64,000 bases of DNA from Fidelibacterota bacterium (GTDB taxonomy: Bacteria; Fidelibacterota; UBA8477; JABMPR01), in the NCBI GenBank assembly GCA_013203185.1, contig JABMOS010000019.1, positions 4,405 through 68,404 on the forward strand, in the 5' to 3' direction. This document shows, piece after piece, positions 23,455 to 63,357 of this stretch. A program made the position numbers and the translations under genes. Each line of letters begins with the position of its first letter. Within the stretch, counting starts at the first letter, position 1. The notes beneath the pieces are model-generated. The model had not been told where the DNA came from, ran no database searches, and saw nothing but the letters and a program-made list of their open reading frames with translations.

Positions 23455-24069
23455 ATGACTTTGGACAAAAAGGAATTACGTAAAGAACAACACCGGCTGG
23501 AAATACTACAGACAGCTGAACGGATCTTTGCCCGTCAGGGATATCATACCACCACCATGGAAGCGGTGGCTGAGGAGTGCGGCTGGAGTAAGGGCACACT
23601 CTATCTCTACTTTAAAAGCAAGGAAGACTTATTTTTCTCAGTCTTATTTGAAAAGCTGGATCGATTCTCGGCTGCGCTACTGGCTGACTTAAAAGCCTCA
23701 GAAGGTGTAGAGGGAAAAATTAGAGGCCTCATTGATGCCCAATTCAGTTTTTTTACAGAAAATAAACACTTTTTTCAACTGGTCATCACCGAACAGGCGA
23801 AAGTCATGCACTCCTCAAATTCAGGTCTCAGGGAAGAGCTCATCCAGAAGCAACACTCCCATATCAATGAGATTTCCCAGGCATTGAGCGAGGGAATGAG
23901 AGATGACACATCTGTTCACGCATCAATACTCGCTGGAAGCATTGTCGGCGCAGTTAATCTTCACCTGGTATCCTGGCTCATGGCGCCCGAATCCATGGAT
24001 GTAGATTATTTAAAATCTCAAATCACCACACTATTCGTAAATGGAATATCTGCACATGAAAATATTTAG
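23455..24069 (+). CDS. TetR/AcrR family transcriptional regulator
   Basis: N-terminal HTH ILQTAERIFARQGYHTTTMEAVAEECGWSKGTLYLYFKSKEDLF; ~200 aa. First gene of the efflux operon. Confidence 0.9.
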   Translation: MTLDKKELRKEQHRLEILQTAERIFARQGYHTTTMEAVAEECGWSKGTLYLYFKSKEDLFFSVLFEKLDRFSAALLADLKASEGVEGKIRGLIDAQFSFFTENKHFFQLVITEQAKVMHSSNSGLREELIQKQHSHINEISQALSEGMRDDTSVHASILAGSIVGAVNLHLVSWLMAPESMDVDYLKSQITTLFVNGISAHENI

Positions 24070-25414: not shown

Positions 25415-26490
25415 TGAAAACACTAAAACTGACCCTCATCCTGAGTCTCGCCTTGTCTCTAATTATTGGTTGCAGCAAAGATGAAGACGCAGATACCGCA
25501 GATGACTGGATCCGCAAGGCAGTTCCTGTTAAGGTAGCCACAGCCCAGGCACAAAACTTTGTCAGCTCTTTGTCTTATAATGGCTCTTTGCTTGCCATTC
25601 AAACCTCTCGGATCATACCAGAGATTCCTGGGAAAATTGAAGCGCTCTATGTCCAGATTGGTGATTATGTCCAGACGGGACAAACTCTGGTTCAAATGGA
25701 TATCAGTACCATGACCCTGCAGCACAAACAAGCGAAGGCTGGTCTTTCTGTAGCTCGGGCCAACCTGGCCGATGCCCAAAAAAACTGGGAGCGGGTTCAG
25801 ACCCTGCGCAGTGAAAATGCAGTTTCCCAACAACAGTTTGAAAAAATGAAACTGGGACTGGATGCTGCTCAGGCACAGATGAGCCAGGCACAAGCAGGCC
25901 TTGATCTTCTCAAAATGCAATTGGATAAAGCCACACTTACCGCCCCCTTTGCTGGCGTCATCACCCAAAGGGGTTTCAATAAAGGAGATTTGTTTAGTCC
26001 GGCCATCATGATGCCTGTTTTTACACTACAAGATGTCTCCTCCATAAAGGTCGAACTTCAGATTACTTCTCAGGAAATCATGAGCATCAAAAAAGGTCAA
26101 AATGCCACATTGAAAGTAGACTATTTGGATGAAGCTGTTCCTGGCAAAGTAACCCTGGTGGGTGTCGCCGCAGACCCCCTTTCAAAAACATTTTTTGTGG
26201 AGTGTCAATTCGACAATCGAACTGGGAATCTACGTGCTGGAACTTTTGGACAAGTGGATATATCCATTGAGGAAATAGAAAATGTCATGGTGGTTCCCCG
26301 GAACTCCGTCATTGATAAATCCCATATGTTTGTTGTTAAGGACAACATGGCCTATCAACGCGACGTTGAAGTACTGCAAACAAGTCTGGAGGAGTTGATT
26401 ATAGGAGCCGGTCTCTCTGAGGGTGAGCAATATGTTACCAGTGGAGCTTTTATTCTCACCGACAGCAGTCTTGTCCAGATTGAGGACTAA
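25414..26490 (+). CDS. RND efflux periplasmic adaptor (MFP/HlyD family)
   Basis: Lipoprotein signal (LIIGC), barrel-sandwich and coiled-coil pattern (GDYVQTGQTLVQMD ... LDKATLTAPFAGVIT). The start overlaps the TolC stop. Confidence 0.9.
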   Translation: MKTLKLTLILSLALSLIIGCSKDEDADTADDWIRKAVPVKVATAQAQNFVSSLSYNGSLLAIQTSRIIPEIPGKIEALYVQIGDYVQTGQTLVQMDISTMTLQHKQAKAGLSVARANLADAQKNWERVQTLRSENAVSQQQFEKMKLGLDAAQAQMSQAQAGLDLLKMQLDKATLTAPFAGVITQRGFNKGDLFSPAIMMPVFTLQDVSSIKVELQITSQEIMSIKKGQNATLKVDYLDEAVPGKVTLVGVAADPLSKTFFVECQFDNRTGNLRAGTFGQVDISIEEIENVMVVPRNSVIDKSHMFVVKDNMAYQRDVEVLQTSLEELIIGAGLSEGEQYVTSGAFILTDSSLVQIED

Positions 26491-26500
26491 GGAGTCTGCC

Positions 26501-29500
26501 ATGAAAATTGTTGATCTATCCGTCGATCGTAAGATCACCGTTACCATGATCACCTTGATTGTGATCCTGGGTGGCATCATTTCATTCACCAAATTGGGTC
26601 TGGATATGCTACCCGATGTTGAATTCCCCATGGTATCTGTGGTCACCGTTTACAGTGGCGCCAGCCCTGAAGATATTGAATCAATTGTTACAAAACCCAT
26701 TGAGCAGGCAATAGCTTCAGTTTCTGGAGTGAAAGGCGTCGTCTCCACCACGGTGGAAGGTATGTCCATGATTGCTGTGGAATTTGAGAGTGGGTCAAAT
26801 CTCGATTTTGCAGCCCAGGATCTCAGAGATCAGCTCGCCATGTTTGCTGACTTCCTACCTGATGACATTCAGACACCCCTAGTCATGAAATTTGATATGT
26901 CTGCCCTGCCCCTGCTGTTTTATGGTGTCACCAGTGAAGAGCGGCCCCTAAACGAGTTGGCCGAGTATATGGACGAAACTGCAGGTTATCGACTGGAACG
27001 CATTGAAGGTGTGGCCTCAGTCATCGTTCAATCACCTGAGGTAAGGGAAATTCAGGTTGAAATCGATCAGCATGCACTGGAAACCTCAGGAATAACCTTG
27101 AATCAGATCATCCAGATGATAGGGTTTGAAAATTTAAACATGCCTGCTGGTCGAATCGTTGAAGATCATAAAGATTTCCTGGTTCGAACCCGGGCTGAAT
27201 TTGCATCCCTGGCTGAAATAGAGGACCTGATTGTAGGGATCTCTCCCACAGGCAATCCTATAAAACTAAGACAAGTGGCAAAGGTTAAGGATACTGTTTC
27301 AGATTTACGCACAGAGATGCGGGTTCAGTCTAAACCAGGTGTCATGATGATTGTCACCAAACAATCTGGGGCAAACACTGTTAAAGTTGCCGATGCAGTT
27401 AAGGCTGAGCTGGCTGAACTGCAGGAAGTTTTACCCAGCGATATTGAGATGCATATCGGGATGGATATGTCCTCCAGTGTGAAGCTCACCGTAAACAGTA
27501 CTGGTCGGACCGCACTATTAGGTGGCGTTCTTGCCATGCTCATGATTTATTTTTTCCTGAGAAATATTCGACCCACACTGGCAGTTGGAATTGCCATTCC
27601 TGTTTCCATCGTCGTTACCTTTATACCGCTTAACGCCGTAGGTTATACCCTTAATCTCCTCACGCTGGGAGGGCTAGCTCTGGGTATAGGTATGCTGGTT
27701 GACAACGCAATTGTAGTTATCGAGAATGTCTTTCGACATCTGGAAGAGGGAAAAAGTCGCAAGGAGGCTGCTCGACTCGGTGCTTCAGAAGTTGGCATGG
27801 CCATCACCGCATCCACACTGACCACTCTGGCCGTATTTCTGCCCATGGCCATGGGCTCAGGTACTGCTGGTCAATTGGTTCGAGGGCTTGCGCTTTCCAT
27901 TTCCTTCTCCTTGTTGGCCTCACTCTTCGTCTCACTCACAATGGTGCCCATGATTGCTTCTGTCTTTTTTAAACCCCGTAGCAAAGTGGATTATACACTC
28001 AAGGCAGATGATTCCTGGATCGTCCGATTAAGAGCAATTTATACTGCAGCACTTACTGTGGTGCTTCAACATCGCTGGAAGACCCTGGGAGCTGCAACTC
28101 TGGCATTCATTATTTCCATGGCACTTATCCCAGTCGTCGGAACTGAATTCATGCCTGAGATGGATCAAGCCATGTTAATGATGAAGATCAAGCTGCCTGT
28201 AGGCTCAGCCCTGGAAGAAACAGACCAGGCAGTGAAGCAAGTGGAAAAAATTGCACTTTCAGAAGATGCCATACAGACCGTGATTGTATCAAATGGTGTC
28301 AATGAAGAAGATCGCGGCCAGAGTGGTGATATGGCCAATGCTGGTTCCCATGAAGGGATGATTATGATGGCTATGAAGCCAAAATCTCAGCGATCTCTTT
28401 CTACTACCATGATTGGTGAAAAAATTCGTGGTGAAATTCCAGCCATGCGTGATGTTACTATTCAGAGCATTGACTTTGGAGCAGCCATGGGTGGTGGTGG
28501 AGCTGATGTGGAAATCCAGGTTTTCGGAAAAGATTTTAAAGTCCTGGAAGAAATCAGCAAGAAGGTCGCCTCCATCATCGCCGAGGTAGAAGGTGTCACC
28601 GACATCAAATCCTCCATGGAAGAAGCAAAGCCTGAATACCATATTGCTTTAAATCGTGAAGAAATTAATCGCATGGGATTGGTCTCAGGACAAGTGGCCA
28701 ACACCATTAAAGCCTCCACCCTGGGTCAAGTAGCCACCCGCTACCGTTTTGCTGGTGACGAAACCAATGTGCGCATCAAATTCCGCGAAGATCAGCGAAA
28801 TTCCATACGCGATATTGGGCAAATCAAACTGACAACTCCCATGAAAACTCAAATCCCACTGGCCCAAGTTGCCTCAATTACCAGGGAAGAGGGACCAGTG
28901 AAGATCATTAGAGATAACCAGAGTCGCATGGTGCTGGTTACCGCCAGCATCCTGGATCGTGATCTGGGATCAGTTATGGAGGAGATCATCGAAATCCTTA
29001 AGCCCATTCAGGCAACTTTACCTGACGGGTATTTTGTGGAGTATGGTGGTCAATATGAGCAAATGATTGACACCTTCATTACTTTAGGTCAGGCTCTGGC
29101 ACTTGCCATCCTCCTCGTATTCATGGTTATGGCATCACAGTTTGAGTCATTGATTCACCCCCTGGTCATCATGGTTACCATTCCTCTGGCGTTGATAGGT
29201 GTGGTTATTGGATTTCTTATATCCGGTGTCACCATCAGTCTTACCAGTTTCATTGGATTCATTCTGCTTACAGGAATTGTGGTGAATAATGGCATTGTGT
29301 TGGTGGATTACATTAATCAATTGCGACGAAAAGGCATCGAGGCGACTGCTGCAATCATAGAAGGGGGATCCACAAGACTTCGCCCTGTCCTCATTACAGC
29401 CCTGACCACTATTTTTGGTATGCTTCCCATGGTTTTAGATTCCAGTGAAGGTGCCAAGATGCGCGCCCCCATGGCCATCACTGTAATTGGTGGATTGACG

Positions 29501-29602
29501 GCAGCAACTTTCCTCACACTGTTTGTAGTTCCTTCGCTCTACAGTCTGCTTGCAGACGCAGGGATTCGAAGAGCTGAAAGGAAGCAGTTGAAAAATGCCT
29601 AG
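26501..29602 (+). CDS. RND (AcrB/HAE1-type) efflux permease
   Basis: Start at 26501 preceded by AAGGAG (26489..26494). MKIVDLSVDRKITVTMITLIV, 12-TM/two-loop architecture, conserved GLALGIGMLVDNAIVVIEN and VVNNGIVLVDYINQLR motifs. The ORF-track start at 26423 is an upstream extension overlapping the MFP gene. Confidence 0.9.
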   Translation: MKIVDLSVDRKITVTMITLIVILGGIISFTKLGLDMLPDVEFPMVSVVTVYSGASPEDIESIVTKPIEQAIASVSGVKGVVSTTVEGMSMIAVEFESGSNLDFAAQDLRDQLAMFADFLPDDIQTPLVMKFDMSALPLLFYGVTSEERPLNELAEYMDETAGYRLERIEGVASVIVQSPEVREIQVEIDQHALETSGITLNQIIQMIGFENLNMPAGRIVEDHKDFLVRTRAEFASLAEIEDLIVGISPTGNPIKLRQVAKVKDTVSDLRTEMRVQSKPGVMMIVTKQSGANTVKVADAVKAELAELQEVLPSDIEMHIGMDMSSSVKLTVNSTGRTALLGGVLAMLMIYFFLRNIRPTLAVGIAIPVSIVVTFIPLNAVGYTLNLLTLGGLALGIGMLVDNAIVVIENVFRHLEEGKSRKEAARLGASEVGMAITASTLTTLAVFLPMAMGSGTAGQLVRGLALSISFSLLASLFVSLTMVPMIASVFFKPRSKVDYTLKADDSWIVRLRAIYTAALTVVLQHRWKTLGAATLAFIISMALIPVVGTEFMPEMDQAMLMMKIKLPVGSALEETDQAVKQVEKIALSEDAIQTVIVSNGVNEEDRGQSGDMANAGSHEGMIMMAMKPKSQRSLSTTMIGEKIRGEIPAMRDVTIQSIDFGAAMGGGGADVEIQVFGKDFKVLEEISKKVASIIAEVEGVTDIKSSMEEAKPEYHIALNREEINRMGLVSGQVANTIKASTLGQVATRYRFAGDETNVRIKFREDQRNSIRDIGQIKLTTPMKTQIPLAQVASITREEGPVKIIRDNQSRMVLVTASILDRDLGSVMEEIIEILKPIQATLPDGYFVEYGGQYEQMIDTFITLGQALALAILLVFMVMASQFESLIHPLVIMVTIPLALIGVVIGFLISGVTISLTSFIGFILLTGIVVNNGIVLVDYINQLRRKGIEATAAIIEGGSTRLRPVLITALTTIFGMLPMVLDSSEGAKMRAPMAITVIGGLTAATFLTLFVVPSLYSLLADAGIRRAERKQLKNA

Positions 29603-51863: not shown

Positions 51864-53138
51864 ATGACAATTTCAGGGGAAAATCAGGATTTAAGAGGGC
51901 TGTTTATTGACAGGTACAATAGGGTTCGAGGATTTACCGAGCAACTATGTGAGCCCCTGGAGAAGGAAGATTATGTCATCCAATCCATGCCTGATGTAAG
52001 CCCAACACGCTGGCACCTGGCCCATACCAGCTGGTTTTTTGAAACCTTTATACTCAAACCAGAACTCAAGAATTATAAGACCCCGAACGAGCTCTACAAT
52101 TATCTCTTCAACTCCTACTATAATGCAGTTGGTCAACAGTTCCCACGGCCTCAAAGAGGACTCCTGAGCCGTCCAACCGTTAAGGAAGTTTTTGCCTATC
52201 GTCATCATGTCGATGAGGAAATGCTTCGCCTTTTTGAGACGCTAGATGAACACAAAATATCGGCGCTTGAATCAATTCTTATTTTAGGTTTAAACCATGA
52301 GCAGCAGCACCAGGAACTCATGCTCACTGATATCAAGCATGTCTTTTTTAAAAATCCGCTTTACCCGTCCTACTCTCAAATTGTTCAGGTAAATGGGTCA
52401 CACAGCTCCGAAGAATTACAGTGGTCATCTTTCCCAGGCGCGCGGGTTCAACATGGATTCTCAGGAGGCAGCTTCAGTTTTGACAATGAAACACCCCGAC
52501 ATGATGTTCTCATTCAACCTTTTGAATTAGGCAATCGGCTTGTGACCAACCGCGAGTATCTGTCGTTCATGGGAGATGGCGGATATAGTCAGGCAGCTCT
52601 CTGGCTTTCTGATGGGTGGGCATTGATCAATAAAGACAACTGGAAAGCCCCCTTATATTGGGTTAAAAATGATGAAAATTGGTTTGAGTTTACCCTTGGC
52701 GGTCTCTCTCCGCTTCATCTTGACAACCCCGTCGCTCATATCAGTTATTATGAAGCTGATGCTTTTGCAAACTGGAGTGGGGCGCGACTACCCAGCGAAC
52801 ATGAGTGGGAATGCGCTGCACAAAATATCCAAATCCAGGGCAACTTTGTTCAGAGCCAATTATTTCAGCCTGCGCCATCAGATTCACCCACCAAATTAAG
52901 TCAAATGTTTGGGGATGTCTGGGAATGGACCCGCAGTCCCTACTCTCCCTATCCTGGATTTAAATCTGCCAGTGGTGCTGTCGGTGAATACAATGGGAAA
53001 TTCATGTCCAACCAAATGGTATTGCGGGGTGGCTCCTGCGTTAGCAGCTGTGACCATTTGCGACACACGTACCGTAACTTCTTTTATCCCCACTCACGCT
53101 GGCAGTTTATGGGCATTCGCCTAGCCAGGGATGTATAG
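51864..53138 (+). CDS. egtB: Ergothioneine biosynthesis sulfoxide synthase EgtB (DinB-like plus FGE-sulfatase-like domains)
   Basis: DinB-type metal site blocks SPTRWHLAHTSWFFETF and LNHEQQHQELMLTDIKH. FGE-like C-terminal domain (VTNREYLSFM, YYEADAFANWSGARLPSEHEWE, GDVWEWTRSPYSPYPGF, VLRGGSCVS). At 424 aa it lacks the extra methyltransferase domain of OvoA. Confidence 0.85.
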   Translation: MTISGENQDLRGLFIDRYNRVRGFTEQLCEPLEKEDYVIQSMPDVSPTRWHLAHTSWFFETFILKPELKNYKTPNELYNYLFNSYYNAVGQQFPRPQRGLLSRPTVKEVFAYRHHVDEEMLRLFETLDEHKISALESILILGLNHEQQHQELMLTDIKHVFFKNPLYPSYSQIVQVNGSHSSEELQWSSFPGARVQHGFSGGSFSFDNETPRHDVLIQPFELGNRLVTNREYLSFMGDGGYSQAALWLSDGWALINKDNWKAPLYWVKNDENWFEFTLGGLSPLHLDNPVAHISYYEADAFANWSGARLPSEHEWECAAQNIQIQGNFVQSQLFQPAPSDSPTKLSQMFGDVWEWTRSPYSPYPGFKSASGAVGEYNGKFMSNQMVLRGGSCVSSCDHLRHTYRNFFYPHSRWQFMGIRLARDV

Positions 53139-53147
53139 GACCTCCTT

Positions 53148-53993
53148 ATGACTTCACCGAAAACGCCCTGGAAGCAACTGCTACCCCTCAATGACAATCG
53201 ACTATTAGAGGCCCGAGGACAACTCCACCAGGCTGTTCAACTCCTGACTGCTGTGAATATTTCTTTTGTTGAGCACAAGGCTGATGATAGCCATACAGCA
53301 CTTCTGTGGGATTCTGACTCCCTGACTTTTTTGAGTCAACCCTTTGGACCTGGAAATAATTTTCAGATCGGCTTACGTCCGGAGGATTTAGCGTGCCTTG
53401 TCTTTCAAAATAATGAGATGTTATTAAATCTGAGATTGAATGGAACAACGCTGGAACAGGTTGCTTCAGATTTACAGTTCTTTCTGGAAGACCACGGCCT
53501 CACCAGGAATGTCTTTACCATGGAGAGACATTTTGAATTGCCAGCCTATCCAGATCGCTGGGCCAGTCCCTTCGATACATCGGATCAGGCTGCATTTGAT
53601 GTGCTTTCTAATGCCTATGCCAACGCATATCCAATGATCAATGAAATTGCCCACAAAGATAGCAGGGCTAGCACTCTGTTAACATGGCCCCATCATTTTG
53701 ACATGGCTGTTTTAATGACTCCCAGCGAGGGGAAATCCATCGGTGTGGGTATGTCACCTGGAGATGCCAGCTATACGAAACCCTACTACTATGTAAATAC
53801 TTGGCCTTACCCATCTGATGATCAAGTGAATGATAGACCTCTCACCTTTGGTAAGTGGCACACCGAAGACTGGAAGGGCATGGTCTTAACTCTGGATCAA
53901 ATCGATAATGCGAAAAAACCCGAAGCGCAAAAATCAATAGTGGAAACATTTCTAAAGGACTCCCTACACCACGCAACAGAGATTACTGAGTAA
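53148..53993 (+). CDS. Hypothetical protein inside the egt operon (possibly DUF5996-like, unverified)
   Basis: No signal peptide and no motif I can assign with confidence. Weak resemblance to my recollection of DUF5996 (WPHHFDMAVL, KPYYYVNTWPYP). 9 nt after egtB and 13 nt before the ABC ATPase. Confidence 0.5.
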   Translation: MTSPKTPWKQLLPLNDNRLLEARGQLHQAVQLLTAVNISFVEHKADDSHTALLWDSDSLTFLSQPFGPGNNFQIGLRPEDLACLVFQNNEMLLNLRLNGTTLEQVASDLQFFLEDHGLTRNVFTMERHFELPAYPDRWASPFDTSDQAAFDVLSNAYANAYPMINEIAHKDSRASTLLTWPHHFDMAVLMTPSEGKSIGVGMSPGDASYTKPYYYVNTWPYPSDDQVNDRPLTFGKWHTEDWKGMVLTLDQIDNAKKPEAQKSIVETFLKDSLHHATEITE

Positions 53994-54006
53994 GCCGCCA
54001 TATCGT

Positions 54007-54759
54007 ATGATACAACTTCGGGACATTAGCAAAAGTTTTAACGGGCATGAGGTCATTCATGACCTCTCTCTTGAGATACCTCAAGGCCAGACGGTGGTTC
54101 TCATTGGTCCCAGTGGATGTGGAAAATCTACACTCCTGAGACTCATGATCGGATTGTTATGGCCTGACAAGGGCAATATCTCTCTTTTTCAACAGGACTT
54201 ATCCAAAACCAATGTTGAAAAACTGCGCCAACAAGTAGGTTTTGTACTCCAGGATGGTGGATTGTTCCCCCATTTGACTGCAGTCCAGAACATGCGCCTT
54301 ATGGCAGACTATTTACATCATGATCCAAAGAAAATTGAACATCGTATTGCTGAATTATGTGAATTGACCCATATCTCTTCAGACCTGCTAAAACACTATC
54401 CCACTGAGTTATCAGGAGGTCAGGTTCAACGGATCGCCCTCATGCGTGCTCTCATGCTGGATCCCCAGATATTGTTTTTAGATGAACCATTGGGAGCGCT
54501 GGACCCCCTGAATAGGGTCAGTTTGCAGGAAGAGATGAAGAGTATCTTTAGTCAACTGGGGAAAACTGTGGTCCTGGTGACCCATGATATGGGGGAAGCT
54601 GCCTCGCTTGCTGACTTGATTGTGATAATGAAAGATGGTTATCTGCTTCAATATGATACCCTCTCCAATCTTTCAGCCCAGCCTGCAGATCCCTTTGTTA
54701 CCGAATTTATAAATGCCCAGAGAAAACCCTGGCAGCTCCTTGAGGATCAGATAAAATGA
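54007..54759 (+). CDS. ABC transporter ATP-binding protein, OpuBA/OpuCA (quaternary amine) type without CBS domains
   Basis: Walker A GPSGCGKST, Q-loop, signature LSGGQ, Walker B ILFLDEP, H-loop VTHD. The C-terminal PADPFVTEFI is typical of the betaine/choline family. ATGA overlap with the next gene. Confidence 0.85.
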   Translation: MIQLRDISKSFNGHEVIHDLSLEIPQGQTVVLIGPSGCGKSTLLRLMIGLLWPDKGNISLFQQDLSKTNVEKLRQQVGFVLQDGGLFPHLTAVQNMRLMADYLHHDPKKIEHRIAELCELTHISSDLLKHYPTELSGGQVQRIALMRALMLDPQILFLDEPLGALDPLNRVSLQEEMKSIFSQLGKTVVLVTHDMGEAASLADLIVIMKDGYLLQYDTLSNLSAQPADPFVTEFINAQRKPWQLLEDQIK

Positions 54760-56267
54760 AGCGTCTGGTCACTTTCACTTATCTGCTCTTGAGTATGCTT
54801 TTCGCAGATATTGCACAGGCAGAATCTGCTTCAGAGATTCGAATAGGGTCAAAGAAGTTCACTGAATCAGTGATTTTGAGTGAACTTATCACCCAACACC
54901 TCCAAAACAACAATGTTTCAGCATCACACAAAGATCAACTTGGTGGAACCCGATTGCTCTGGAATGCTCTGGTCCAGGGGGAACTGGATATCTATCCCGA
55001 CTATACAGGCACGATTATATACGAAATACTGCAAGGTAATGAGATTTCATCAGATGCAGATATCAAGGCTGCTCTTGCTCAGTATGGCGTGAGTATGACA
55101 GATCCTTTGGGTTTCAATAATACTTATGCCCTGGGGGTTACACCGCCGACTGCTAGAAAGTTCTCACTCGAAAAGATTAGCGATTTAGAACAACATCCCA
55201 AACTCAAGTTTGGTTTTACCAATGAGTTTATGGATCGTGAGGATGGGTGGCCCGGCCTAAGAAATCATTACCAACTACCCCAAACCGAAGTCCGCGGTTT
55301 AGATCATGACCTGGCATATAAGGGGCTGGAGGCAGGCTCCATTGACCTCATTGATCTCTATTCAACGGATGCTGAAATCGCCTATTATCAATTAAGTGTT
55401 TTGGAAGATGACAAGAGCTACTTCCCTGATTACCGAGCAGTAATACTCTATAGAACTGATCTGCTAGATCGCTCCCCAGGGGTTCAAAACTATTTAGCTC
55501 AGCTAAGTGGAAGTATTTCAGAGACTGAGATGATCCAGATGAATTCTGCCGTCAAATTGGATGGTCACAGTGAGGCTGAAGTAGCACAGAGTTTCTTGAA
55601 TATTAAGTTTAATACGCTCTCCAAAATCAAAGTCTCTACAAGACTTGACCGATTAATCGCAACCACATCAGAGCATTTATTCCTGGTCTGTATTTCTCTG
55701 GGCGCGGCCATTCTGGTAGCCATTCCCCTGGGGATCTGGGGCGCCAGGAATGAAACCCTAGGTCAGATTATTCTTAGTATAGTGGGTATTATACAGACCA
55801 TACCTTCACTGGCATTGCTGGTTTTCATGATCCCTCTCCTGGGAATTGGTGGACCACCTGCACTGGTAGCCTTATTCCTCTATAGCCTGCTTCCTATCGT
55901 ACGAAATACTTTAAGTGGTTTAACGGGACTTCCCCTTGCGGTACAGGAATCAGCTCGAGCCCTTGGTCTACCCCCAGCAGCTCAACTAAGACTAATCGAA
56001 CTCCCCCTGGCTGCTCGTTCGATTCTGGCAGGCATAAAAATATCAGCAGTTATTAATGTCGGTACGGCAACGCTGGGCGCTTTGATTGGCGCAGGTGGAT
56101 ATGGCCAACCTATACTCACCGGAATTAGACTGGACGATACCAGCCTCATTCTCGAAGGTGCAATTCCGGCTGCGGTTCTTGCGCTGCTTGTTCAATGGAG
56201 TTTTGATTTTGCTGAACGCACTTTACTCTCACCTGGATTACAAAGGAAACAGGATTCTGTATCATGA
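54756..56267 (+). CDS. Fused substrate-binding domain (N-terminal) and permease (C-terminal) of an OpuB/OpuC-type quaternary-amine ABC transporter
   Basis: Signal peptide. SBP block IRIGSKKFTESVILSELI...LGGTRLLWNALVQGELDIYPDYTGTI. Then a 5-6 TM permease with IPSLALLVFMIPLLGIGGPPALVALFLYSLLPIVRNT and the EAA-like ESARALG. ATGA overlap with egtD. Confidence 0.8.
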   Translation: MKRLVTFTYLLLSMLFADIAQAESASEIRIGSKKFTESVILSELITQHLQNNNVSASHKDQLGGTRLLWNALVQGELDIYPDYTGTIIYEILQGNEISSDADIKAALAQYGVSMTDPLGFNNTYALGVTPPTARKFSLEKISDLEQHPKLKFGFTNEFMDREDGWPGLRNHYQLPQTEVRGLDHDLAYKGLEAGSIDLIDLYSTDAEIAYYQLSVLEDDKSYFPDYRAVILYRTDLLDRSPGVQNYLAQLSGSISETEMIQMNSAVKLDGHSEAEVAQSFLNIKFNTLSKIKVSTRLDRLIATTSEHLFLVCISLGAAILVAIPLGIWGARNETLGQIILSIVGIIQTIPSLALLVFMIPLLGIGGPPALVALFLYSLLPIVRNTLSGLTGLPLAVQESARALGLPPAAQLRLIELPLAARSILAGIKISAVINVGTATLGALIGAGGYGQPILTGIRLDDTSLILEGAIPAAVLALLVQWSFDFAERTLLSPGLQRKQDSVS

Positions 56268-57286
56268 CTGAAACACTTAGTTCACCCCAGATTATCAAGG
56301 CTCAAGATCATATTGAAAACCCGACTATGGCTTTTGCCAAGGACGTACTTACAGGGCTAAACAAATCACCCAAGCGGCTGTCTTCTGTCTATTTCTATGA
56401 TGAACGCGGCTCCCAAATATTTGAAGAAATTTGCGATCTCGAGGAATATTATCTCACACGAAAGGAAACTGAAATTCTTCAGCGTTCTGCAGCAGAAATC
56501 ATTTCAAAACTGCCTCCCAACACCCATCTCGTGGAATTGGGAAGTGGTAGCTCAACAAAAACCAGGATATTGTTGGAAGCAGCCCTGGCAAGCTTTGGCA
56601 CTACTCAATATTCACCCATCGATGTTTCAGCTGAAATCCTGACAGATACCGTGAAAGATCTCAACCAGCGCTATCCAGATCTCCAGTTGGAAGCCATCGC
56701 AGGCCGCTATGAGTTTGGTATGGATTATATCCTTAAAAACAGCACCTCATCCAAATGTATTATGTGGCTAGGTTCCAGTATTGGAAATTTAACCCGAATT
56801 GAAGCAGCACAATTTTTGCGTGAAGTCCGCAAAACCATGGGTGATCAGGACAGCTTGCTCCTGGGAATTGATCTCCGTAAAGGACCTGAAATTCTGGAAC
56901 CAGCATATGATGATGCCCAAGGTGTCACCGCTGACTTCAACCTGAATTTACTTGATCGTATCAACTCTGAGTTGGGTGGTACTTTTAAGCGTAACAACTT
57001 CCACCATCAGGCTGTTTATAATGTCGATGAAGGTCGTATAGAAATGTATCTGGTCAGCGACATCGACCAGGAAACAGAAATCAAAAATATTGGAGCCAAA
57101 ATCTCATTCCATAAGGATGAGAAAATCTTGACTGAATATTCATATAAGTATTCACACTCTGAAATTACGGCTCTCGCAGAAGCCTCAGGCTTTTTTCTGG
57201 AGCAACAATGGTTGGATGATTCCGGCTGGTTTAGTCTGAATTGTTTTAAACCCCAAACTAACGCGGCTGAATTGCGCGCCCTATAA
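56264..57286 (+). CDS. egtD: L-histidine N-alpha-methyltransferase EgtD (hercynine synthase)
   Basis: YFYDERGSQIFEEICDLEEYYLTRKETEIL, LVELGSGSSTKTRILLEA, YSPIDVS, WLGSSIGN, ..TEYSYKY: the canonical EgtD/dimethylhistidine methyltransferase blocks. Confidence 0.85.
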   Translation: MTETLSSPQIIKAQDHIENPTMAFAKDVLTGLNKSPKRLSSVYFYDERGSQIFEEICDLEEYYLTRKETEILQRSAAEIISKLPPNTHLVELGSGSSTKTRILLEAALASFGTTQYSPIDVSAEILTDTVKDLNQRYPDLQLEAIAGRYEFGMDYILKNSTSSKCIMWLGSSIGNLTRIEAAQFLREVRKTMGDQDSLLLGIDLRKGPEILEPAYDDAQGVTADFNLNLLDRINSELGGTFKRNNFHHQAVYNVDEGRIEMYLVSDIDQETEIKNIGAKISFHKDEKILTEYSYKYSHSEITALAEASGFFLEQQWLDDSGWFSLNCFKPQTNAAELRAL

Positions 57287-57297
57287 AGGAGTATCAA

Positions 57298-57579
57298 ATG
57301 AAAGCCATTTGGAACGACAAAATTATTGCTGAAAGTGACAAAACCATCATCATCGAAGGGAATCATTATTTCCCTGTTGAATCAGTGAATCCCACATATC
57401 TCAAAGACAGTGAAACCCATACTATCTGCCACTGGAAAGGAACTGCTAGCTATCACCACATTGAAGTAGATGGCCAGGATAACCCAGATGCCGCATGGTA
57501 CTACCCGGACCCCTTAGATGCTGCTCAACCTATCAAAGACCATATTGCCTTTTGGAAGGGTGTCGAAGTTATCCAGTAG
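57298..57579 (+). CDS. DUF427 domain protein
   Basis: IAESDKTIIIEGNHYFP...V.......S.THT.C.WKG.ASYH.I.V.G..N.DAAWYYPDP...A..IK..IAFW.GV matches the DUF427 pattern; 93 aa. Confidence 0.7.
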   Translation: MKAIWNDKIIAESDKTIIIEGNHYFPVESVNPTYLKDSETHTICHWKGTASYHHIEVDGQDNPDAAWYYPDPLDAAQPIKDHIAFWKGVEVIQ

Positions 57580-58394: not shown

Positions 58395-58420
58395 TTAAAA
58401 AATAAGCCCTAATCGTTATA

Positions 58421-58454
58421 AAAAGACCATCTGTCACCAGGTGGTCTTTTTTTT
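58421..58454. terminator. Bidirectional rho-independent terminator
   Basis: AAAA-GACCATCTG-tcac-CAGGTGGTC-TTTTTTTT (9-bp stem with one G-U), between convergent genes. Confidence 0.8.
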
Positions 58455-58459
58455 AATCT

Positions 58460-59248
58460 TTACCAGTCAATTCCTCCTGGACAGGTAATCCAGATGCACA
58501 ATTTGGGCGGGAGTTTTTGCTGCTTTTTCAAGTAACTGAATAAGGTACCCATAAAAATTGGATCCCAAGTTTGACCAGTCACTTTGCGCACATCCCTCAT
58601 CACCTTTATGCGCTCCTTTAGGCCTGGTTTCCAGAGACCGGCTGATTTCCTTAGACTCATATATTTAAGAATTCGTATCCCCAAGGGTTGCGTTAATACA
58701 CCGGTTACACCATCAGTTTGCCGGGCAATACTTGTGAGGAGATCACCAGAAGCTACTGCCACCACATGGTGAAAATCTTCGCCAGTTGTCTTGATCGTTT
58801 CTTTCACGGCATTTTGAGTGGGAAGATCAGATCCAAGGCTCCCGCCAATGCTCATAAAATGATGTCCAGATCTAGCTTTTCTTTTTTGCCTGTTAAACGC
58901 CAAACTCATAGACCATGAAGAATCCACCTTTTGGATGATGTTCTCTCGAGAATCTAGTAATGTGGTCATGGCTTTTTCGTAAGGTCCTCCTCCATAGTGG
59001 GTACCATAAAGATGGATCATCACCTCAGGCAAGAGGCTGGATAGCGTATAGGCAGTATGGGAACCTGCATAAGAAAGCAAGTGGATGTGTTTTACATCTT
59101 CAAGTTCTTGTACAAATTGCTCAAGAGCGCGTCTTTTTTTACCGCCACCATCTGGGAGTAAATCCTCACGAACAAGGGCTACTTGCTCAACGTTCAACCA
59201 TCGTGCTAACTTCTGGTCAAACTCGATCTGAGTCGATAGCGTGGTCAT
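58460..59248 (-). CDS. Short DcyD/ACC-deaminase-like (fold-type II PLP) protein
   Basis: Blocks parallel to D-cysteine desulfhydrase as recalled: VREDLLPDGGGKKRRALEQF (cf. KRDD..P...GGNKLRKLEF, PLP lysine), SIGGSLGS (cf. PVGGSNALG), VVAVASGD, DPIFMGTLF (cf. DPVYTGKA), WITCPGG (cf. FIHTGG). Only 262 aa. Confidence 0.45.
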   Translation of the reverse strand: MTTLSTQIEFDQKLARWLNVEQVALVREDLLPDGGGKKRRALEQFVQELEDVKHIHLLSYAGSHTAYTLSSLLPEVMIHLYGTHYGGGPYEKAMTTLLDSRENIIQKVDSSWSMSLAFNRQKRKARSGHHFMSIGGSLGSDLPTQNAVKETIKTTGEDFHHVVAVASGDLLTSIARQTDGVTGVLTQPLGIRILKYMSLRKSAGLWKPGLKERIKVMRDVRKVTGQTWDPIFMGTLFSYLKKQQKLPPKLCIWITCPGGIDW

Positions 59249-60300
59249 CTTGCTAATAGTTTTGACAGCCTTGGCGCTACATATTGAGAACCAATCATAA
59301 ACTTCATTGGGGGCCCAAAGAACATTTCTGTTGAGGGTCCGATAAAGTATAAGTCCCGCATGGAACTCATAAAATTTTTGTCAATACGGGGCATGGCAGC
59401 TCTCATTTCAAGGCTATTTCGCAAATCTTCAGCCAAAAAACTCATATGATTTAGCGTGTAATTGTAGCCTGTAGCAGAAATGACATGATCATAGTTATTT
59501 AAATCCGGTAAGCTTGAAAACCTGTCAACATCAGCCAGCTTAATTTTGTGATCCGGCGTCATGGTGGTTGCAGAAAATATCGAGAACAAATATTGAACGA
59601 GACGATGAGGTAAGCGTCGGAAGAGACCTGCACTTTTTACAACCAGGTTGAATATCCATTTAGGCAGATCCAATGGTTCAGAGTAGAACCGGGGTTCTTT
59701 TCGGGCATACCAATGAACCTGGTTATCATTTTTCCTGCAAACTTCCATGGCTTCTGCTGCGGATTGCCCCGCACCAACAACCAATACCCTTTTTCCCTGT
59801 AAGGCTTCGATTTCCTGGGTGTAATAGCTGTGAATGACATCACTGGCCTCAGAGAATTCTGTTGGAACATTAAGATGGTGTGCCACACCAGTGGCAATCA
59901 CCACTTGTTTGGCTTCCAAGACTGCTCCAGATTCCAGTTCTGCCTGGAAATAGCTCTTTTTCTTTGACAGATTCGCCAAATATTCTGGTTGAATATCATA
60001 GGGTACTTGAGCCAACACCCACTCAACGTATTGACGGTATTCCTTTACACCTATGCGTTCACTTGATATACCTATGGGGAGGCCATTTTTTGCGCGAAAG
60101 TTTTGTATGGAATAGGTGCGATGTGGATGAGCAATTTCTGAAGTTGCCATTTCTGATCGTAATGAGGCATCTGTGAAAGTATGATTTCTCCAGAGCTCCA
60201 TGGGCTTGCCAATTATCTTAAAATCCAACCCTAATTCTGACATGTAGTTCGCCAGGGATAGGCCATATGGTCCTGCTCCCACGATTAATACTGGAATCAT
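59245..60300 (-). CDS. FAD/NAD(P)-binding oxidoreductase, flavin monooxygenase-like
   Basis: Two Rossmann dinucleotide motifs: N-terminal MIPVLIVGAGPYGLSLA and central KRVLVVGAGQSAAE, plus an ATG motif (VISATGY). Start placed at 60300 (GGGAG upstream, 4 nt after the Lgt-like stop); the ORF opens at 60339. 4-nt overlap with the downstream gene. Confidence 0.7.
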   Translation of the reverse strand: MIPVLIVGAGPYGLSLANYMSELGLDFKIIGKPMELWRNHTFTDASLRSEMATSEIAHPHRTYSIQNFRAKNGLPIGISSERIGVKEYRQYVEWVLAQVPYDIQPEYLANLSKKKSYFQAELESGAVLEAKQVVIATGVAHHLNVPTEFSEASDVIHSYYTQEIEALQGKRVLVVGAGQSAAEAMEVCRKNDNQVHWYARKEPRFYSEPLDLPKWIFNLVVKSAGLFRRLPHRLVQYLFSIFSATTMTPDHKIKLADVDRFSSLPDLNNYDHVISATGYNYTLNHMSFLAEDLRNSLEMRAAMPRIDKNFMSSMRDLYFIGPSTEMFFGPPMKFMIGSQYVAPRLSKLLAR

Positions 60301-60304
60301 ATTG

Positions 60305-61315
60305 TCACCAACTCCCAATTTTTCTGCCATGGGTTCCATAGGCCAACCCCATTATCACTGGAGCCAGGATGAGCACACCAAGGCTAGCCCGCAGACTCTG
60401 GAAACCGCTGCTAAGACTAACTTCTGCTACTGAAAACCCGCCCATAAATACATAGACCATGATCCCGAAACTCAGAACCATAAATGATACGCTAAACCAT
60501 TGCCAGATAGTCAACCCGAAAAAATAAACTCTGGGAAATTCACCCCGTAAAAACTCAATAGTAAAGCGTTTTATTCCATATAGTCCCATATAGATAGCAG
60601 CCAACATACCAATTGGCCGGCCATCCCAGAATAGGCTTAGCGATAGTATCGATAAGTAAATAGCTGTATTGACCAGCACTGAATACAGTTGGGTCGGATG
60701 CAATCGCTTGCCTCTAAGTTCTGGATTAAAGCGCAACACCTTTGTCCTGGAATCGAAGTAGCGAATTCCTGGCTGATGATCAGTAGTACATTCTCTTCCA
60801 TGGCAGCATCCATAGTTCAGACATCCTAATCGTCCAAATGCTTGAGCTAATGGGACACCCAGTGCGAAGGCATCCAGAAGTGCCAACATGGGGATATTGT
60901 TAAAAGAGGCGAAAGCTGTTATCATTAGCAATCCTCCCGTAAGACTACCCCACAATCCAAAACTTACAGTACGGATATACTCAATAAATGTTTTTTCACC
61001 TGAGAGCCAAGTTTTTATATCTAAAAATCTTGTCATTATATATCCAGATACGGGTGCCACCAGTGCGATGAATAAGGCGAGTTGACTAATCTGGAAATTT
61101 TGAGGTACAATCTGGTAGGCCCCCAGGTAAAAGATGACATGGAGAGCGGCCAATAAGGTTCCCACACCTACAAATAGACCAAAACCCACTAGAGTGAAGG
61201 ATTGCCCCTGATATAGTACAACAGGACCAAAATCACCACCCCCGGTGAGCGACTTTGCTCTCGCCCCTCCGGTATCCGTTAAACCGTCTATCGTTTCTAC
61301 TCGTTCATTCATCAT
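60305..61315 (-). CDS. Divergent prolipoprotein diacylglyceryl transferase (Lgt) family membrane protein
   Basis: Polytopic. Lgt-like blocks AFGRLGCLNYGCCHGR (cf. E. coli GAGRLGNFINGELWGR), LHPTQLYSVL (cf. RHPSQLYEL), GLYGIKRFTIEFLR (cf. GYGAFRIIVEFFR). The Asn and Glu of the signature motif are replaced by Cys. Confidence 0.6.
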   Translation of the reverse strand: MMNERVETIDGLTDTGGARAKSLTGGGDFGPVVLYQGQSFTLVGFGLFVGVGTLLAALHVIFYLGAYQIVPQNFQISQLALFIALVAPVSGYIMTRFLDIKTWLSGEKTFIEYIRTVSFGLWGSLTGGLLMITAFASFNNIPMLALLDAFALGVPLAQAFGRLGCLNYGCCHGRECTTDHQPGIRYFDSRTKVLRFNPELRGKRLHPTQLYSVLVNTAIYLSILSLSLFWDGRPIGMLAAIYMGLYGIKRFTIEFLRGEFPRVYFFGLTIWQWFSVSFMVLSFGIMVYVFMGGFSVAEVSLSSGFQSLRASLGVLILAPVIMGLAYGTHGRKIGSW

Positions 61316-61338
61316 TTCAGCCCTTGAATTCAGTTATA

Positions 61339-61361
61339 ATTGTGACTTATTCGATCACAAT
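61339..61361. promoter_or_regulatory. Inverted repeat, candidate TetR operator in divergent promoter region
   Basis: ATTGTGA-N9-TCACAAT lies between the Lgt-like operon (minus) and the tetR gene (plus). Confidence 0.4.
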
Positions 61362-61451
61362 ATAGGCTTCACAAAGATTTTACGTGTCAGCATGATTACA
61401 TTTTAAGAAAAGAATGATTTGGAATAAATGAATGATCGTTTATTATAGAGA

Positions 61452-62024
61452 GTGAGAGTTAAAGACGAACATAAGCAACAGGCCATAATCAGTGCAACTA
61501 TTGCCCTGGTAAATGAGATAGGTTTTGCCTCCAGCTCCGTATCCAAGATCGCCAAACGGGCTGAAGTTTCACCAGCAACTATTTACATCTATTACAAAAA
61601 TAAAGATGATTTGCTGGTTTCCACTTATGTAACCATTAAGACCTGTCTCGGCGATGCTTTGATGGCAGATTTTGATGCCTCGCTCCCGGTGGAGGATGCC
61701 TTGATGAACACAGGTGTCAACCTCTTCAATTATATCTCTGCTAATTCTGAGTTATTCTATTTTACAGAGCAATTTGCTAATTCACCCTATAACGATCTGG
61801 TGGATAAGGAAAAAATTGAAGCCGCTTTCCTACCTTTATTGGATGTCCTGAAGCAGGGTATTAAAGATAAAATCATCAAGGACGTGCCATTTGAGCTCAT
61901 CTTCTCCCACCTGTACTACCCCATCTTTGGTTTAGCAAATCCACGTTTAAATCCGGATTTTAAAGCTACACCAGACAATGTTAGAGCAGTCATGTCCATG
62001 GCCTGGGATGCTATAAAAGTATGA
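61452..62024 (+). CDS. TetR/AcrR family transcriptional regulator
   Basis: HTH IISATIALVNEIGFASSSVSKIAKRAEVSPATIYIYYKNKDDLL. GTG start per the ORF track. Confidence 0.85.
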   Translation: MRVKDEHKQQAIISATIALVNEIGFASSSVSKIAKRAEVSPATIYIYYKNKDDLLVSTYVTIKTCLGDALMADFDASLPVEDALMNTGVNLFNYISANSELFYFTEQFANSPYNDLVDKEKIEAAFLPLLDVLKQGIKDKIIKDVPFELIFSHLYYPIFGLANPRLNPDFKATPDNVRAVMSMAWDAIKV

Positions 62025-62178: not shown

Positions 62179-63357
62179 ATGAATATTCGTTTAAATAAAT
62201 CACTAAAAAGAACAGGAAAGATCATCATCAGCTTATTGTTGATCCTTACTGGTTCCGTTTTTACCATCAATACCGTCTTCTCGGCGGCCAAATATGATCA
62301 AGGAGACAATCCTTTGAAAAAAATCCAAGCTTCCCCTCAATACAAGGACGGGAAATTCACAAATCCCAAAGTGTTGGAAATGAATCCTGGCTTTGGCATG
62401 ATAAAAAAGTACCTATTTGGTAAGGAACAGCGCTCCCCTGAAGAAATCCTTCCTCAAAATAAAATTGACCTCACTCTCCTCGAATCTGCTGACAGCTCTT
62501 ATCTAAAAGTCACCAATGCAGGACACTCCTCCCTTCTCATCCACATGGATGGATATCGCATCCTTACAGACCCGGTTTATGAGGCTAAACTCACGCCTGT
62601 AGGCCCCACTCGTTTTAACAAGGATATCCCAATTGATCCCACCGAGTTAAAGAATATTGATGTGGTGGTTATTTCCCATAATCATTATGATCACCTCAAC
62701 AAATACTCCATCAAGACCATTCACCCTGAAGTTGCTCGCTTTATCGTCCCGCTAGGCGTTGGAGCACAACTAGAAAAATGGGGCGTTCCCCGTGAGAAGA
62801 TTACCGAACTGGATTGGTGGGATTCCTTTGATTACGATGAAAAGCTAACCATCACCTCTACCCCCAGCCAACACTTTTCCGGTCGAGGACTTGCTGATCG
62901 TAATGAAACCTTATGGACCTCGTATGTCATTGCCAGCCTGGACCACAATATCTACTTCAGTGGAGATTCTGGCTATTTCGATGGCTTCAAAACCATCGGT
63001 GAGAAATACGGACCCTTTGATATCGCATTTATGGAGTGTGGAGCCTATAACAAGGAGTGGGCAGATGTCCATATGTTTCCAGAGCAGACCGTTCAAGCCT
63101 CTCTGGATCTAAAGGCCCATTATGTCTGGCCCATTCACTGGGGCACCTTCAACCTGGCTCTCCATGATTGGTTCGATCCCATGAAGCGAGTTACCATTGC
63201 TGCTGAAGCAAACGGTGTACGCTTGCTGACCCCCATATTTGGCCAAGTTGTCGAGTATCCTGGTAGAATGCAGACCAAAAAATGGTGGGCGCCCTACTTA
63301 CCTGAGAGGCCAACTGTGATGGATGTTGAACCCAATGCACAAATTGATACACCTTAA
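62179..63357 (+). CDS. MBL-fold metallo-hydrolase (NAPE-PLD-like) with N-terminal membrane anchor
   Basis: HxHxDH motif in VVISHNHYDHLN, downstream FSGDSGY and His-containing blocks. TM/signal helix at the N-terminus. Confidence 0.8.
   Translation: MNIRLNKSLKRTGKIIISLLLILTGSVFTINTVFSAAKYDQGDNPLKKIQASPQYKDGKFTNPKVLEMNPGFGMIKKYLFGKEQRSPEEILPQNKIDLTLLESADSSYLKVTNAGHSSLLIHMDGYRILTDPVYEAKLTPVGPTRFNKDIPIDPTELKNIDVVVISHNHYDHLNKYSIKTIHPEVARFIVPLGVGAQLEKWGVPREKITELDWWDSFDYDEKLTITSTPSQHFSGRGLADRNETLWTSYVIASLDHNIYFSGDSGYFDGFKTIGEKYGPFDIAFMECGAYNKEWADVHMFPEQTVQASLDLKAHYVWPIHWGTFNLALHDWFDPMKRVTIAAEANGVRLLTPIFGQVVEYPGRMQTKKWWAPYLPERPTVMDVEPNAQIDTP

Follow-up and report, generated by a model that had tools for sequence, protein, structure and literature searches.

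The 64,000-nucleotide (nt) stretch of a Fidelibacterota contig analysed here (the window) carries a compact three-gene operon encoding a membrane protein of the Lgt family, a flavin-dependent enzyme (below, the flavoenzyme), and a miniature pyridoxal 5′-phosphate (PLP)-type protein (X3); coordinates are collected in Table 1, and the loci compared with it are given as L numbers. The trio is one unit: the order Lgt-like gene, flavoenzyme gene, X3 gene, and their orientation, are kept in every locus that carries X3. The best reading remains the one made earlier from the window's sequence (the original prediction), of a membrane-associated module modifying lipids, possibly sulfur- or amino-lipids. 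In its present form, this reading is that a TetR-repressed operon encodes a specialised membrane-lipid head-group pathway, and not the housekeeping Lgt of lipoprotein maturation; it has about an even chance of being right.

The three genes are packed as first described, with a 4-nt gap (CAAT) between the TGA of the Lgt-like gene and the ATG of the flavoenzyme gene, and a 4-nt overlap (ATGA) of the flavoenzyme stop with the X3 start. The same coordinates and starts for all three came out of an independent gene call, made on an identical contig. The flavoenzyme ATG is preceded by a GGGAG run, 12 nt upstream; a longer version beginning with an ATG at 60339 is possible, but not needed. The best relatives of all three proteins, with up to 81–89% identity and identical synteny, are found in metagenome-assembled genomes of Candidatus (Neo)marinimicrobiota/Fidelibacterota. 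Carriers of the full trio include Marinimicrobia (40–81% identity), Chitinivibrionales (28%), Spirochaetales, the cultured Firmicute Cohnella zeiphila, and an AT-rich metagenomic contig (L093); among the assemblies with the cassette are those of C. zeiphila CBP-2801 (NZ_JACJVO01), Cohnella sp. REN36, and the Marinimicrobia bins SI036_bin79 (JABHBL01) and BH26 (JAERTG01). Lack of synteny in relatives, named beforehand as telling against a functional set, is therefore not what was found: the set is syntenic across phyla. A flavoenzyme or X3 partner accompanies the gene in 0 of about 60 loci with short Lgts.

That the membrane protein belongs to the Lgt family was proposed at the outset, and both models and predicted structure agree. 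It matches the LGT family model PF01790 at 104 bits (cut-off 24.9). A single-sequence search of the PDB with this protein found no match; its AlphaFold 2 (AF2) model, with 8 helices and a predicted local distance difference test score (pLDDT) of 89, has E. coli Lgt (5azb) as its only significant fold match in a Foldseek search of the PDB (E 3e-8). It falls below the cut-offs both of the housekeeping equivalog model TIGR00544 (60.7 vs. 118.9) and of the best NCBIfam subfamily model, NF000778 (94.9 vs. 334). In alignment with E. coli Lgt (the reference sequence used is identical to that of 5azb), the equivalents of D129, R143, G154, Y235, R239, and E243 are kept, while Y26F, H103W, N146C, and E151C are substitutions. 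Of the six residues required in E. coli Lgt, three (R143, G154, and R239) are thus retained and three (Y26F, H103W, and N146C) changed. Y26F is reported to be inactive in E. coli Lgt; H103W/Y/F and N146C occur in natural Lgts, according to a 2026 survey of the family.

The signature motif of the protein, GRLGCLNYGCCHGR, aligns with E. coli G142–R155, the N146C and E151C substitutions giving a C-x4-CC cluster. The original prediction was right about these substitutions, but its conclusion from them, that the protein is unlikely to be a housekeeping Lgt, fails, because ordinary short Lgts share the motif and such variants have already been published. The pattern GRLGC(F/L)xxGCCxG was found in 120 of the 120 best LGT-family matches, among them ordinary 250–280-aa Lgts of Elusimicrobia (one from a complete genome), Acidobacteria, Aquificota, and others. 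The 2026 survey reports N146 to C and E151 to C/D changes in distant Lgts, finds two Lgt copies in about 1,300 of 12,956 genomes (about 10%), and describes an N146C Lgt, that of Leptospira interrogans, which partly replaces E. coli Lgt. By sequence comparison, then, the C-x4-CC cluster does not mark the Lgt-like protein as non-housekeeping, and it was rejected as the marker of a special paralogue. As a side observation, one Elusimicrobia genome has two short Cys-type lgt genes in tandem (L069, 9986–11558).

Better markers are a reversed charge bias, Y26F, an eighth helix with a C-terminal motif, and the stable association of the gene with those of two cytoplasmic enzymes. By its sequence, the Lgt-like protein is of a long form, a rare branch of its family found in at least about 10 species-representative genomes among the matches listed, which adds a hydrophilic N-terminal extension and the eighth helix. 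The C-terminal motif of this branch, YGxHG(R/K)xxG, has H329, G330, and G334 conserved across 30 long-form members, and occurs at every long-form locus, whether or not the partner genes are there. Compared with E. coli Lgt (5azb/5azc), the protein has the same fold and the signature motif in the same position, but a shorter head domain (39 residues), the N-terminal hydrophilic extension, the eighth helix, the HG(R/K)xxG sequence, a predicted opposite orientation, and a gene tied to those of two soluble enzymes in one operon. The short Cys-type Lgts and the L. interrogans Lgt share the GRLGC...GCC or GC...C signature, but are 250–320 aa long, with 7 helices, the canonical charge bias, mostly Y26, and no flavoenzyme or X3 partner. 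Mycobacterium smegmatis MSMEG_5408, a second copy presumed to have low activity, is likewise an LGT paralogue changed at Y26 and N146 (Y26H, N146C); for second copies such as this one, however, no partners, extra helix, or charge reversal are reported in the survey's description. Within the general model proposed here, the Lgt-like protein is very probably not the housekeeping Lgt.

The charge bias concerns the Lys and Arg (K+R) content of the loops. In E. coli Lgt, the cytoplasmic face is strongly positive, and the signature motif and head domain are periplasmic, according to the crystal-structure paper; its K+R count is 11 in the cytoplasmic loops vs. 6. In the Lgt-like protein, with helices defined by the AF2 model, there are 18 K+R on the signature/head side vs. 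1 on the other, where the loops are just 4–8 residues long. Among long forms (53 sequences of clade A and 9 of clade B), the loops corresponding to the E. coli cytoplasmic ones have 1.3–2.4 K+R, and the N-terminus plus “periplasmic” loops about 16–18; the clade-A means are 1.3 (in three loops) vs. about 16. The reversed bias is present in every long-form locus, while for 55 short Cys-type Lgts the values are 9.0 (cytoplasmic loops) vs. 7.4. The modelled protein thus departs from the seven helices, periplasmic head, and positive cytoplasmic face of a housekeeping Lgt, with 8 predicted helices and K+R reversed. As a control, the L. interrogans Lgt (functional in E. coli; sequence taken from the supplement of the 2026 survey paper) has the canonical bias, and no similarity between it and the Leptospiraceae long form was detectable. 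The idea that it might itself be a long form, which would contradict the topology proposed here, was rejected on these grounds.

By the positive-inside rule, this reversed bias predicts an N-in, C-in long form, with the eighth helix returning the C-terminal motif to the catalytic side. Within the general model, an inverted topology, with the catalytic cavity opening to the cytoplasm, the compartment of the two cofactor enzymes, is therefore considered probable.

LGT domains are also found in larger proteins. In a Bacteroidales locus (L075, 8663–10600), a 645-aa open reading frame (ORF) is a PEMT-PAP2_3-LGT fusion (PEMT being phospholipid methyltransferase) with a Cys-type LGT part, and ORFs of about 650–720 aa with a C-terminal Cys-type LGT domain occur in Bacteroidales, Gemmatimonadota, and Myxococcaceae (L053, L059, L080, L041, L056, L040, and L028); the scan of N-terminal domains covers L075 only. 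Like the long form, the fusion-type LGT domain has loops 3 and 5 without K/R.

The second protein is, by the family models it matches and the motifs it contains, a class-B flavin monooxygenase, in agreement with its first description as a two-Rossmann flavoenzyme. PF13738 (Pyr_redox_3) covers its full length (E 3e-23, 83 bits vs. a cut-off of 30) and PF13434 (Lys_Orn_oxgnase) also matches (E 2e-17, 63.7 bits vs. 21.3). Its motifs include VGAGPYG, for flavin adenine dinucleotide (FAD); HSYY; VVGAGQSAAE, for reduced nicotinamide adenine dinucleotide phosphate (NADPH); and DHVISATGY, of the ATGY type. In the PDB, it matches the putrescine N-hydroxylase FbsI (6xbb) best. It shares PF13434/PF13738, both dinucleotide motifs, and a D-x3-(L/F)ATGY-type motif with FbsI and the SidA/PvdA/IucD monooxygenases, but is shorter (351 aa), falls into its own clade, which is tied to the cassette, and has no siderophore genes nearby. 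Neither the flavoenzyme nor X3 has a recognisable signal peptide; the cofactors expected from their sequences are FAD/NADPH and PLP, respectively.

Among the closest flavin N-hydroxylase-like homologues outside the cassette is one, 37% identical to the flavoenzyme, encoded by the third gene of an operon on a TARA Oceans scaffold (L089, 5567–8113; also L090), together with a PlsC-type acyltransferase and a FeeM/GNAT N-acyl amino acid synthase. This operon has the look of an aminolipid pathway, similar to the OlsB/OlsA type but with an oxygenation added. By analogy, it suggests that the flavoenzyme clade may act on amino-lipid head groups; the difference is that the lipid-attaching enzyme would here be an Lgt-type alkyl transferase, not an acyltransferase. 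Other relatives were not informative: those of about 405 aa sit among unrelated sugar and peptide-ligase genes, and one (P0233) stands alone.

X3 was originally described as a truncated protein of the D-cysteine desulfhydrase/1-aminocyclopropane-1-carboxylate (ACC) deaminase type. This holds at the fold level, and could be resolved only by a family profile and structure prediction, since single-sequence searches against Pfam and NCBIfam (E 0.01) and the PDB found no match, and the Pfam PALP (PF00291) threshold is not reached. The top PDB matches of the family profile are exclusively ACC deaminase and D-Cys desulfhydrase chains (9jqf, 4d8t, and 1j0a), in alignments that cover both the GG(N/K)K lysine motif and the DP(V/I)xxG motif. 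The AF2 model (pLDDT 91.5) gives D-Cys desulfhydrase 7ysk as the best Foldseek match (E 4e-11, template modelling score 0.73), followed by 1j0a, 4d8u, and other fold-type II PLP enzymes. In the model, X3 has a fold-type II architecture with a candidate Schiff-base lysine, K38, invariant in a GG(G/N)K motif that is literally GGNK in L008 and L093. The REDLLxxGG(N/K)K, (S)H, ASG, and DP(V/I)xxG motifs of these enzymes (7ysk, 4d8t, 1j0a, and 9jqf) all align with X3, but it is about 65 residues shorter, the glycine-rich phosphate loop is cut down (to VASGDLL), and the catalytic Tyr is replaced by Phe (DPIFMG, with F232 invariant). Among 1.84 billion proteins, the family has just 66 representatives; in the representative library, no canonical 330-aa enzyme reaches E 1e-3 against its profile. 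A Cys of X3 close to the C-terminus, C251, is nearly invariant.

The regulatory features of the locus were also largely anticipated. A TetR-family gene is divergent from the operon, and the ATTGTGA-N9-TCACAAT inverted repeat between them occurs just once in the window. Four relatives (L001, L010, L013, and L015) keep it, at about 45 nt upstream of the start of the Lgt-like gene. It lies between the Lgt-like start and a promoter-like match, downstream of the latter; promoter-like matches in this region are no more numerous than shuffled expectation. The divergent arrangement is the same in L001, L002, L003, and L095. With its helix-turn-helix domain, divergent operon, and conserved repeat, the regulator is a likely TetR-family repressor with a palindromic operator, and the trio a putatively TetR-repressed three-gene operon. 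A second conserved block, TCTATAATAAACGATCATTCATTTAT (61415–61445), just upstream of the TetR start and common to the window, L001, L013, and L015, contains an imperfect palindrome; it is possibly another operator, or else the promoter of tetR. The hairpin that closes the operon has a 14-bp stem with an A-run and a T-run on its flanks.

Table 1. Positions of the operon, its regulatory elements, and adjoining features in the 64,000-nt window.
Feature	Position	Strand	Description
Lgt-like gene	60305-61315	-	Long-form Lgt-like membrane protein, 336 aa, 8 predicted transmembrane helices
Flavoenzyme gene	59245-60300	-	Predicted class-B flavin monooxygenase, N-hydroxylase/FMO type, 351 aa
X3 gene	58460-59248	-	Predicted miniature fold-type-II PLP protein, D-Cys desulfhydrase/ACC deaminase lineage, 262 aa
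TetR-family regulator gene	61452-62024	+	Divergent from three-gene operon; PF00440 and TetR_C_10 matches
Inverted repeat ATTGTGA-N9-TCACAAT	61339-61361	.	Probable TetR operator
Coding region of signature motif GRLGCLNYGCCHGR	60794-60835	-	Residues 161-174 of Lgt-like protein
Coding region of C-terminal motif YGTHGRKIGSW	60308-60340	-	After extra eighth helix of Lgt-like protein
Sigma-70-like promoter match TTAAAA-18-TAAAAT	61377-61406	-	For three-gene operon; consensus match only
Bidirectional terminator-like hairpin	58420-58451	.	Closes operon; between X3 and convergent ytfJ-like gene
NAPE-PLD-like gene	62179-63357	+	Metallo-beta-lactamase-fold phospholipase; downstream of TetR; PF12706 match

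A literature search found no description of a long-form branch with reversed bias, eighth helix, and C-terminal motif, or of a fixed trio including a mini DcyD-like protein and an N-hydroxylating-monooxygenase-like enzyme, and nothing relevant on inverted Lgts, on Lgt-like proteins paired with monooxygenases, or on PF01790 within gene clusters. What is already known is thus the existence of extra lgt copies and of Cys variants; no description of the long-form branch or of the trio was found, in line with what the original prediction supposed of the module.

How might such a module work? The proposed pathway would begin with the Lgt-like enzyme, which would take the diacylglyceryl group from an inner-leaflet phospholipid and attach it to a small amino-acid-derived molecule, at its thiol or amine; for the acceptor, cysteine is the most economical guess. 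The E. coli residues involved in phosphatidylglycerol binding and alkyl transfer (R143, R239, E243, D129, and G154) have kept equivalents. The two translationally coupled cytoplasmic enzymes would make or process the head group, X3 by C-S or beta-elimination/replacement chemistry and the flavin monooxygenase by oxygenating an N or S atom. Lipid carriers or exporters would then take over the product, a role that YceI and MMPL genes might fill in relatives. The analysis shows the gene structure, the folds, the conserved residues, the charge reversal, and the synteny; topology, donor, acceptor, and product are all inferred.

There is a precedent in logic for a cysteine-based version of this scheme. 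Both the EgtB/EgtE steps of ergothioneine synthesis and the Allium pathway of S-alk(en)ylcysteine, flavin S-oxygenase, and alliinase combine thioether formation, heteroatom oxygenation, and a PLP-dependent C-S lyase. The trio would follow the same order, with thioether formation, then S-oxygenation, then C-S lysis, and encodes the same three putative chemistries; the proteins are unrelated, and the likeness is one of analogy only.

The gene contexts of the long form also have to do with lipids. Downstream of TetR in the window, the product of the 62179–63357 gene is similar to human NAPE-PLD (4qn9, E 3e-50) and has an N-terminal hydrophobic segment; among the Marinimicrobia, the closer relatives keep this gene together with the locus. 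In L093, an overlapping gene for an MMPL-family transporter (258 bits) directly follows the trio, and PntAB transhydrogenase comes next. Four lineages (L004, L005, L014, and L017), two of them without the partners, have a gene for YceI, a lipid-binding family, immediately upstream of the long form. Further lipid-related settings are the aminolipid-type operon of L089 and the PEMT-PAP2_3-LGT fusion of Bacteroidales. Cohnella and L004/L017 also have TetR regulators. Taken together, these settings speak for a free lipid as the product, and less for lipoprotein maturation. A link to isoprenoids, considered because GGR, Caroten_synth, LytB-UbiA, and heptaprenyl synthase genes are near some cassettes, was dropped: beyond YceI, these contexts are not recurrent.

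Several observations weigh against the head-group pathway. Long-form genes without both partners occur in L004, L017, L019-21, and L025-26 (L004/L017, deltaproteobacterial and myxococcal loci, and a Leptospiraceae locus); flanking genes differ between lineages, and the MMPL link is seen at one locus only (L093). Given Y26F, the Lgt-like protein may not transfer diacylglycerol at all, and, given its shortened phosphate-binding loop and the Phe in place of the catalytic Tyr, X3 may be inactive or have a different chemistry. The orientation of the membrane protein is a prediction of the positive-inside rule only.

Finally among these, no second PF01790 gene is present in the roughly 73 kb of this genome that is visible. 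A profile including E. coli Lgt, and E. coli Lgt alone, searched against all ORFs of the window and 88 loci, gave no second match in any Marinimicrobia locus, and the remainder of the contig has only ZIP, HtpG, and shikimate genes. The Lgt of Bacteroides thetaiotaomicron, a fellow member of the Fibrobacteres-Chlorobi-Bacteroidetes (FCB) group, keeps N146, and an Lgt of this kind would escape word-based searches from this query. The sequence shows, on the other hand, that the organism makes ordinary lipoproteins, which need a periplasm-facing Lgt, and this speaks for the head-group pathway: classical lipoboxes are found in the ORFs at 25414 (LIIGC) and 6258 (IISC; region 6258–8201), the former being the middle ORF of a 24041–29602 region whose layout, judged from ORF sizes only, is that of a resistance-nodulation-division (RND) efflux operon. 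If the topology proposed for the long form is right, a periplasm-facing Lgt must therefore exist somewhere.

Some further features of the neighbourhood bear on the alternatives. In the window, the NAPE-PLD homologue is co-transcribed with TetR and followed by a gene for a 230-aa NAD-binding-like protein. On the other side of the operon, and convergent with it, is an ergothioneine cluster (51864–57579) encoding EgtB (TIGR03440, 578 bits), EgtD (TIGR03438, 363 bits), a 281-aa protein with a weak DUF5996 match (53148–53993), an ABC ATPase, a fused OpuAC-permease (an EgtUV-like layout), and a DUF427 protein; no egtE-type C-S lyase is visible in this cluster. The arrangement is kept in close relatives. 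In L007, a relative with 45% identity, a homologue of the 281-aa protein is encoded directly after X3 (10981–11784), followed by a rhodanese-domain protein, with SufE nearby. In the Spirochaetales cassette (L024, 8555–9911), genes for a CcdA-type DsbD_TM protein and a TlpA/AhpC-TSA thioredoxin-like protein directly precede the Lgt-like gene, which the TlpA-like gene overlaps; a gene for an extracytoplasmic function (ECF) sigma factor is nearby.

Protein lipidation is one alternative to the head-group pathway. An inward-facing S-diacylglyceryl transferase might tether to the membrane a protein of the cytoplasm or the inner leaflet, perhaps one of its two partners. Transfer of diacylglycerol to a protein cysteine is the only chemistry known for the Lgt family, core catalytic residues are kept, the predicted cytoplasmic orientation would allow cytoplasmic targets, and X3 has the nearly invariant C251 near its C-terminus. 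One argument against such a role is that the partners have no conserved lipobox-like motif; nor does it give the monooxygenase and the PLP fold an obvious function, and the MMPL, YceI, and NAPE-PLD contexts better fit a free lipid. This explanation is considered unlikely.

As a second possibility, the trio might belong with ergothioneine or another low-molecular-weight thiol, X3 being the missing C-S lyase and the Lgt-like protein and flavoenzyme serving to conjugate or recycle the thiol. Bona fide EgtB and EgtD are encoded 1–6 kb away with no egtE in sight, the 281-aa egt-cluster homologue directly follows the cassette in L007, and the DcyD lineage does carry out C-S elimination; in addition, a gene for an FGE-sulfatase-domain protein is upstream in L008, and the start of the L024 operon is joined by the CcdA and TlpA-like thiol-redox genes. 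However, the egt genes of the window are on the other strand, beyond the bidirectional terminator, and no such genes adjoin the cassettes in Cohnella, Spirochaetales, L005, and L093. Known EgtE enzymes, moreover, have a PLP fold different from that of X3. These points make the thiol link improbable.

A third possibility is stress-induced detoxification, in which TetR would detect a xenobiotic or a damaged lipid and the trio would alter it. Xenobiotics are classically processed by flavin monooxygenases and C-S lyases, TetR genes are found here, in Cohnella, and in L004/L017, the ECF sigma factor is found in L024, and short-chain dehydrogenases/reductases and a hydrolase are among the neighbours. 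No efflux pump is conserved with the trio, though, and biosynthesis seems the better match for genes so tightly coupled, in families of narrow and coherent distribution. This too is quite improbable.

Least probable, and very doubtful, is that this is a plain housekeeping Lgt, of a Cys type common to many phyla, with two unrelated genes behind it by chance: it is the only PF01790 gene seen in the visible genome, the Cys motif is normal in many functional-looking Lgts, including the partly working L. interrogans protein, and some databases name clade members Lgt, but the three genes keep together across phyla and no short-Lgt locus has the partners, the TIGR00544 score is under the cut-off, Y26F is present, the charge bias is reversed from that of the E. 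coli, short Cys-type, and L. interrogans proteins, TetR repression would be odd for an essential gene, the clade is found in few species-representative genomes (at least about 10 among the matches listed), and the cassette is also found in a Bacillales isolate, members of the Bacillales carrying a canonical lgt.

The head-group pathway can be taken one step further, to a version that is tentative and, in all its particulars, rather unlikely. The long forms would be the first Lgt enzymes of the cytoplasmic face, and the trio would use phosphatidylglycerol and an amino acid resembling cysteine to build a new class of phosphorus-free glycerolipid with a thioether or amino link, for MMPL- or YceI-type export; one example of such a product would be an S-diacylglyceryl-cysteine-derived lipid, or a thiol or sulfonate lipid.

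Lgt is regarded as an enzyme with one job, the first, periplasm-facing step of lipoprotein maturation, and as an antibiotic target. If the head-group pathway is correct, the Lgt fold has also been recruited elsewhere, most plausibly for an unknown membrane lipid in the abundant deep-ocean Marinimicrobia and in scattered members of other phyla. Annotation, and surveys of lgt copies, probably mix two functionally different families, which the reversed charge bias and C-terminal motif would offer a simple way to separate. Cohnella zeiphila, as a cultured carrier of the trio, makes the hypothesis testable.

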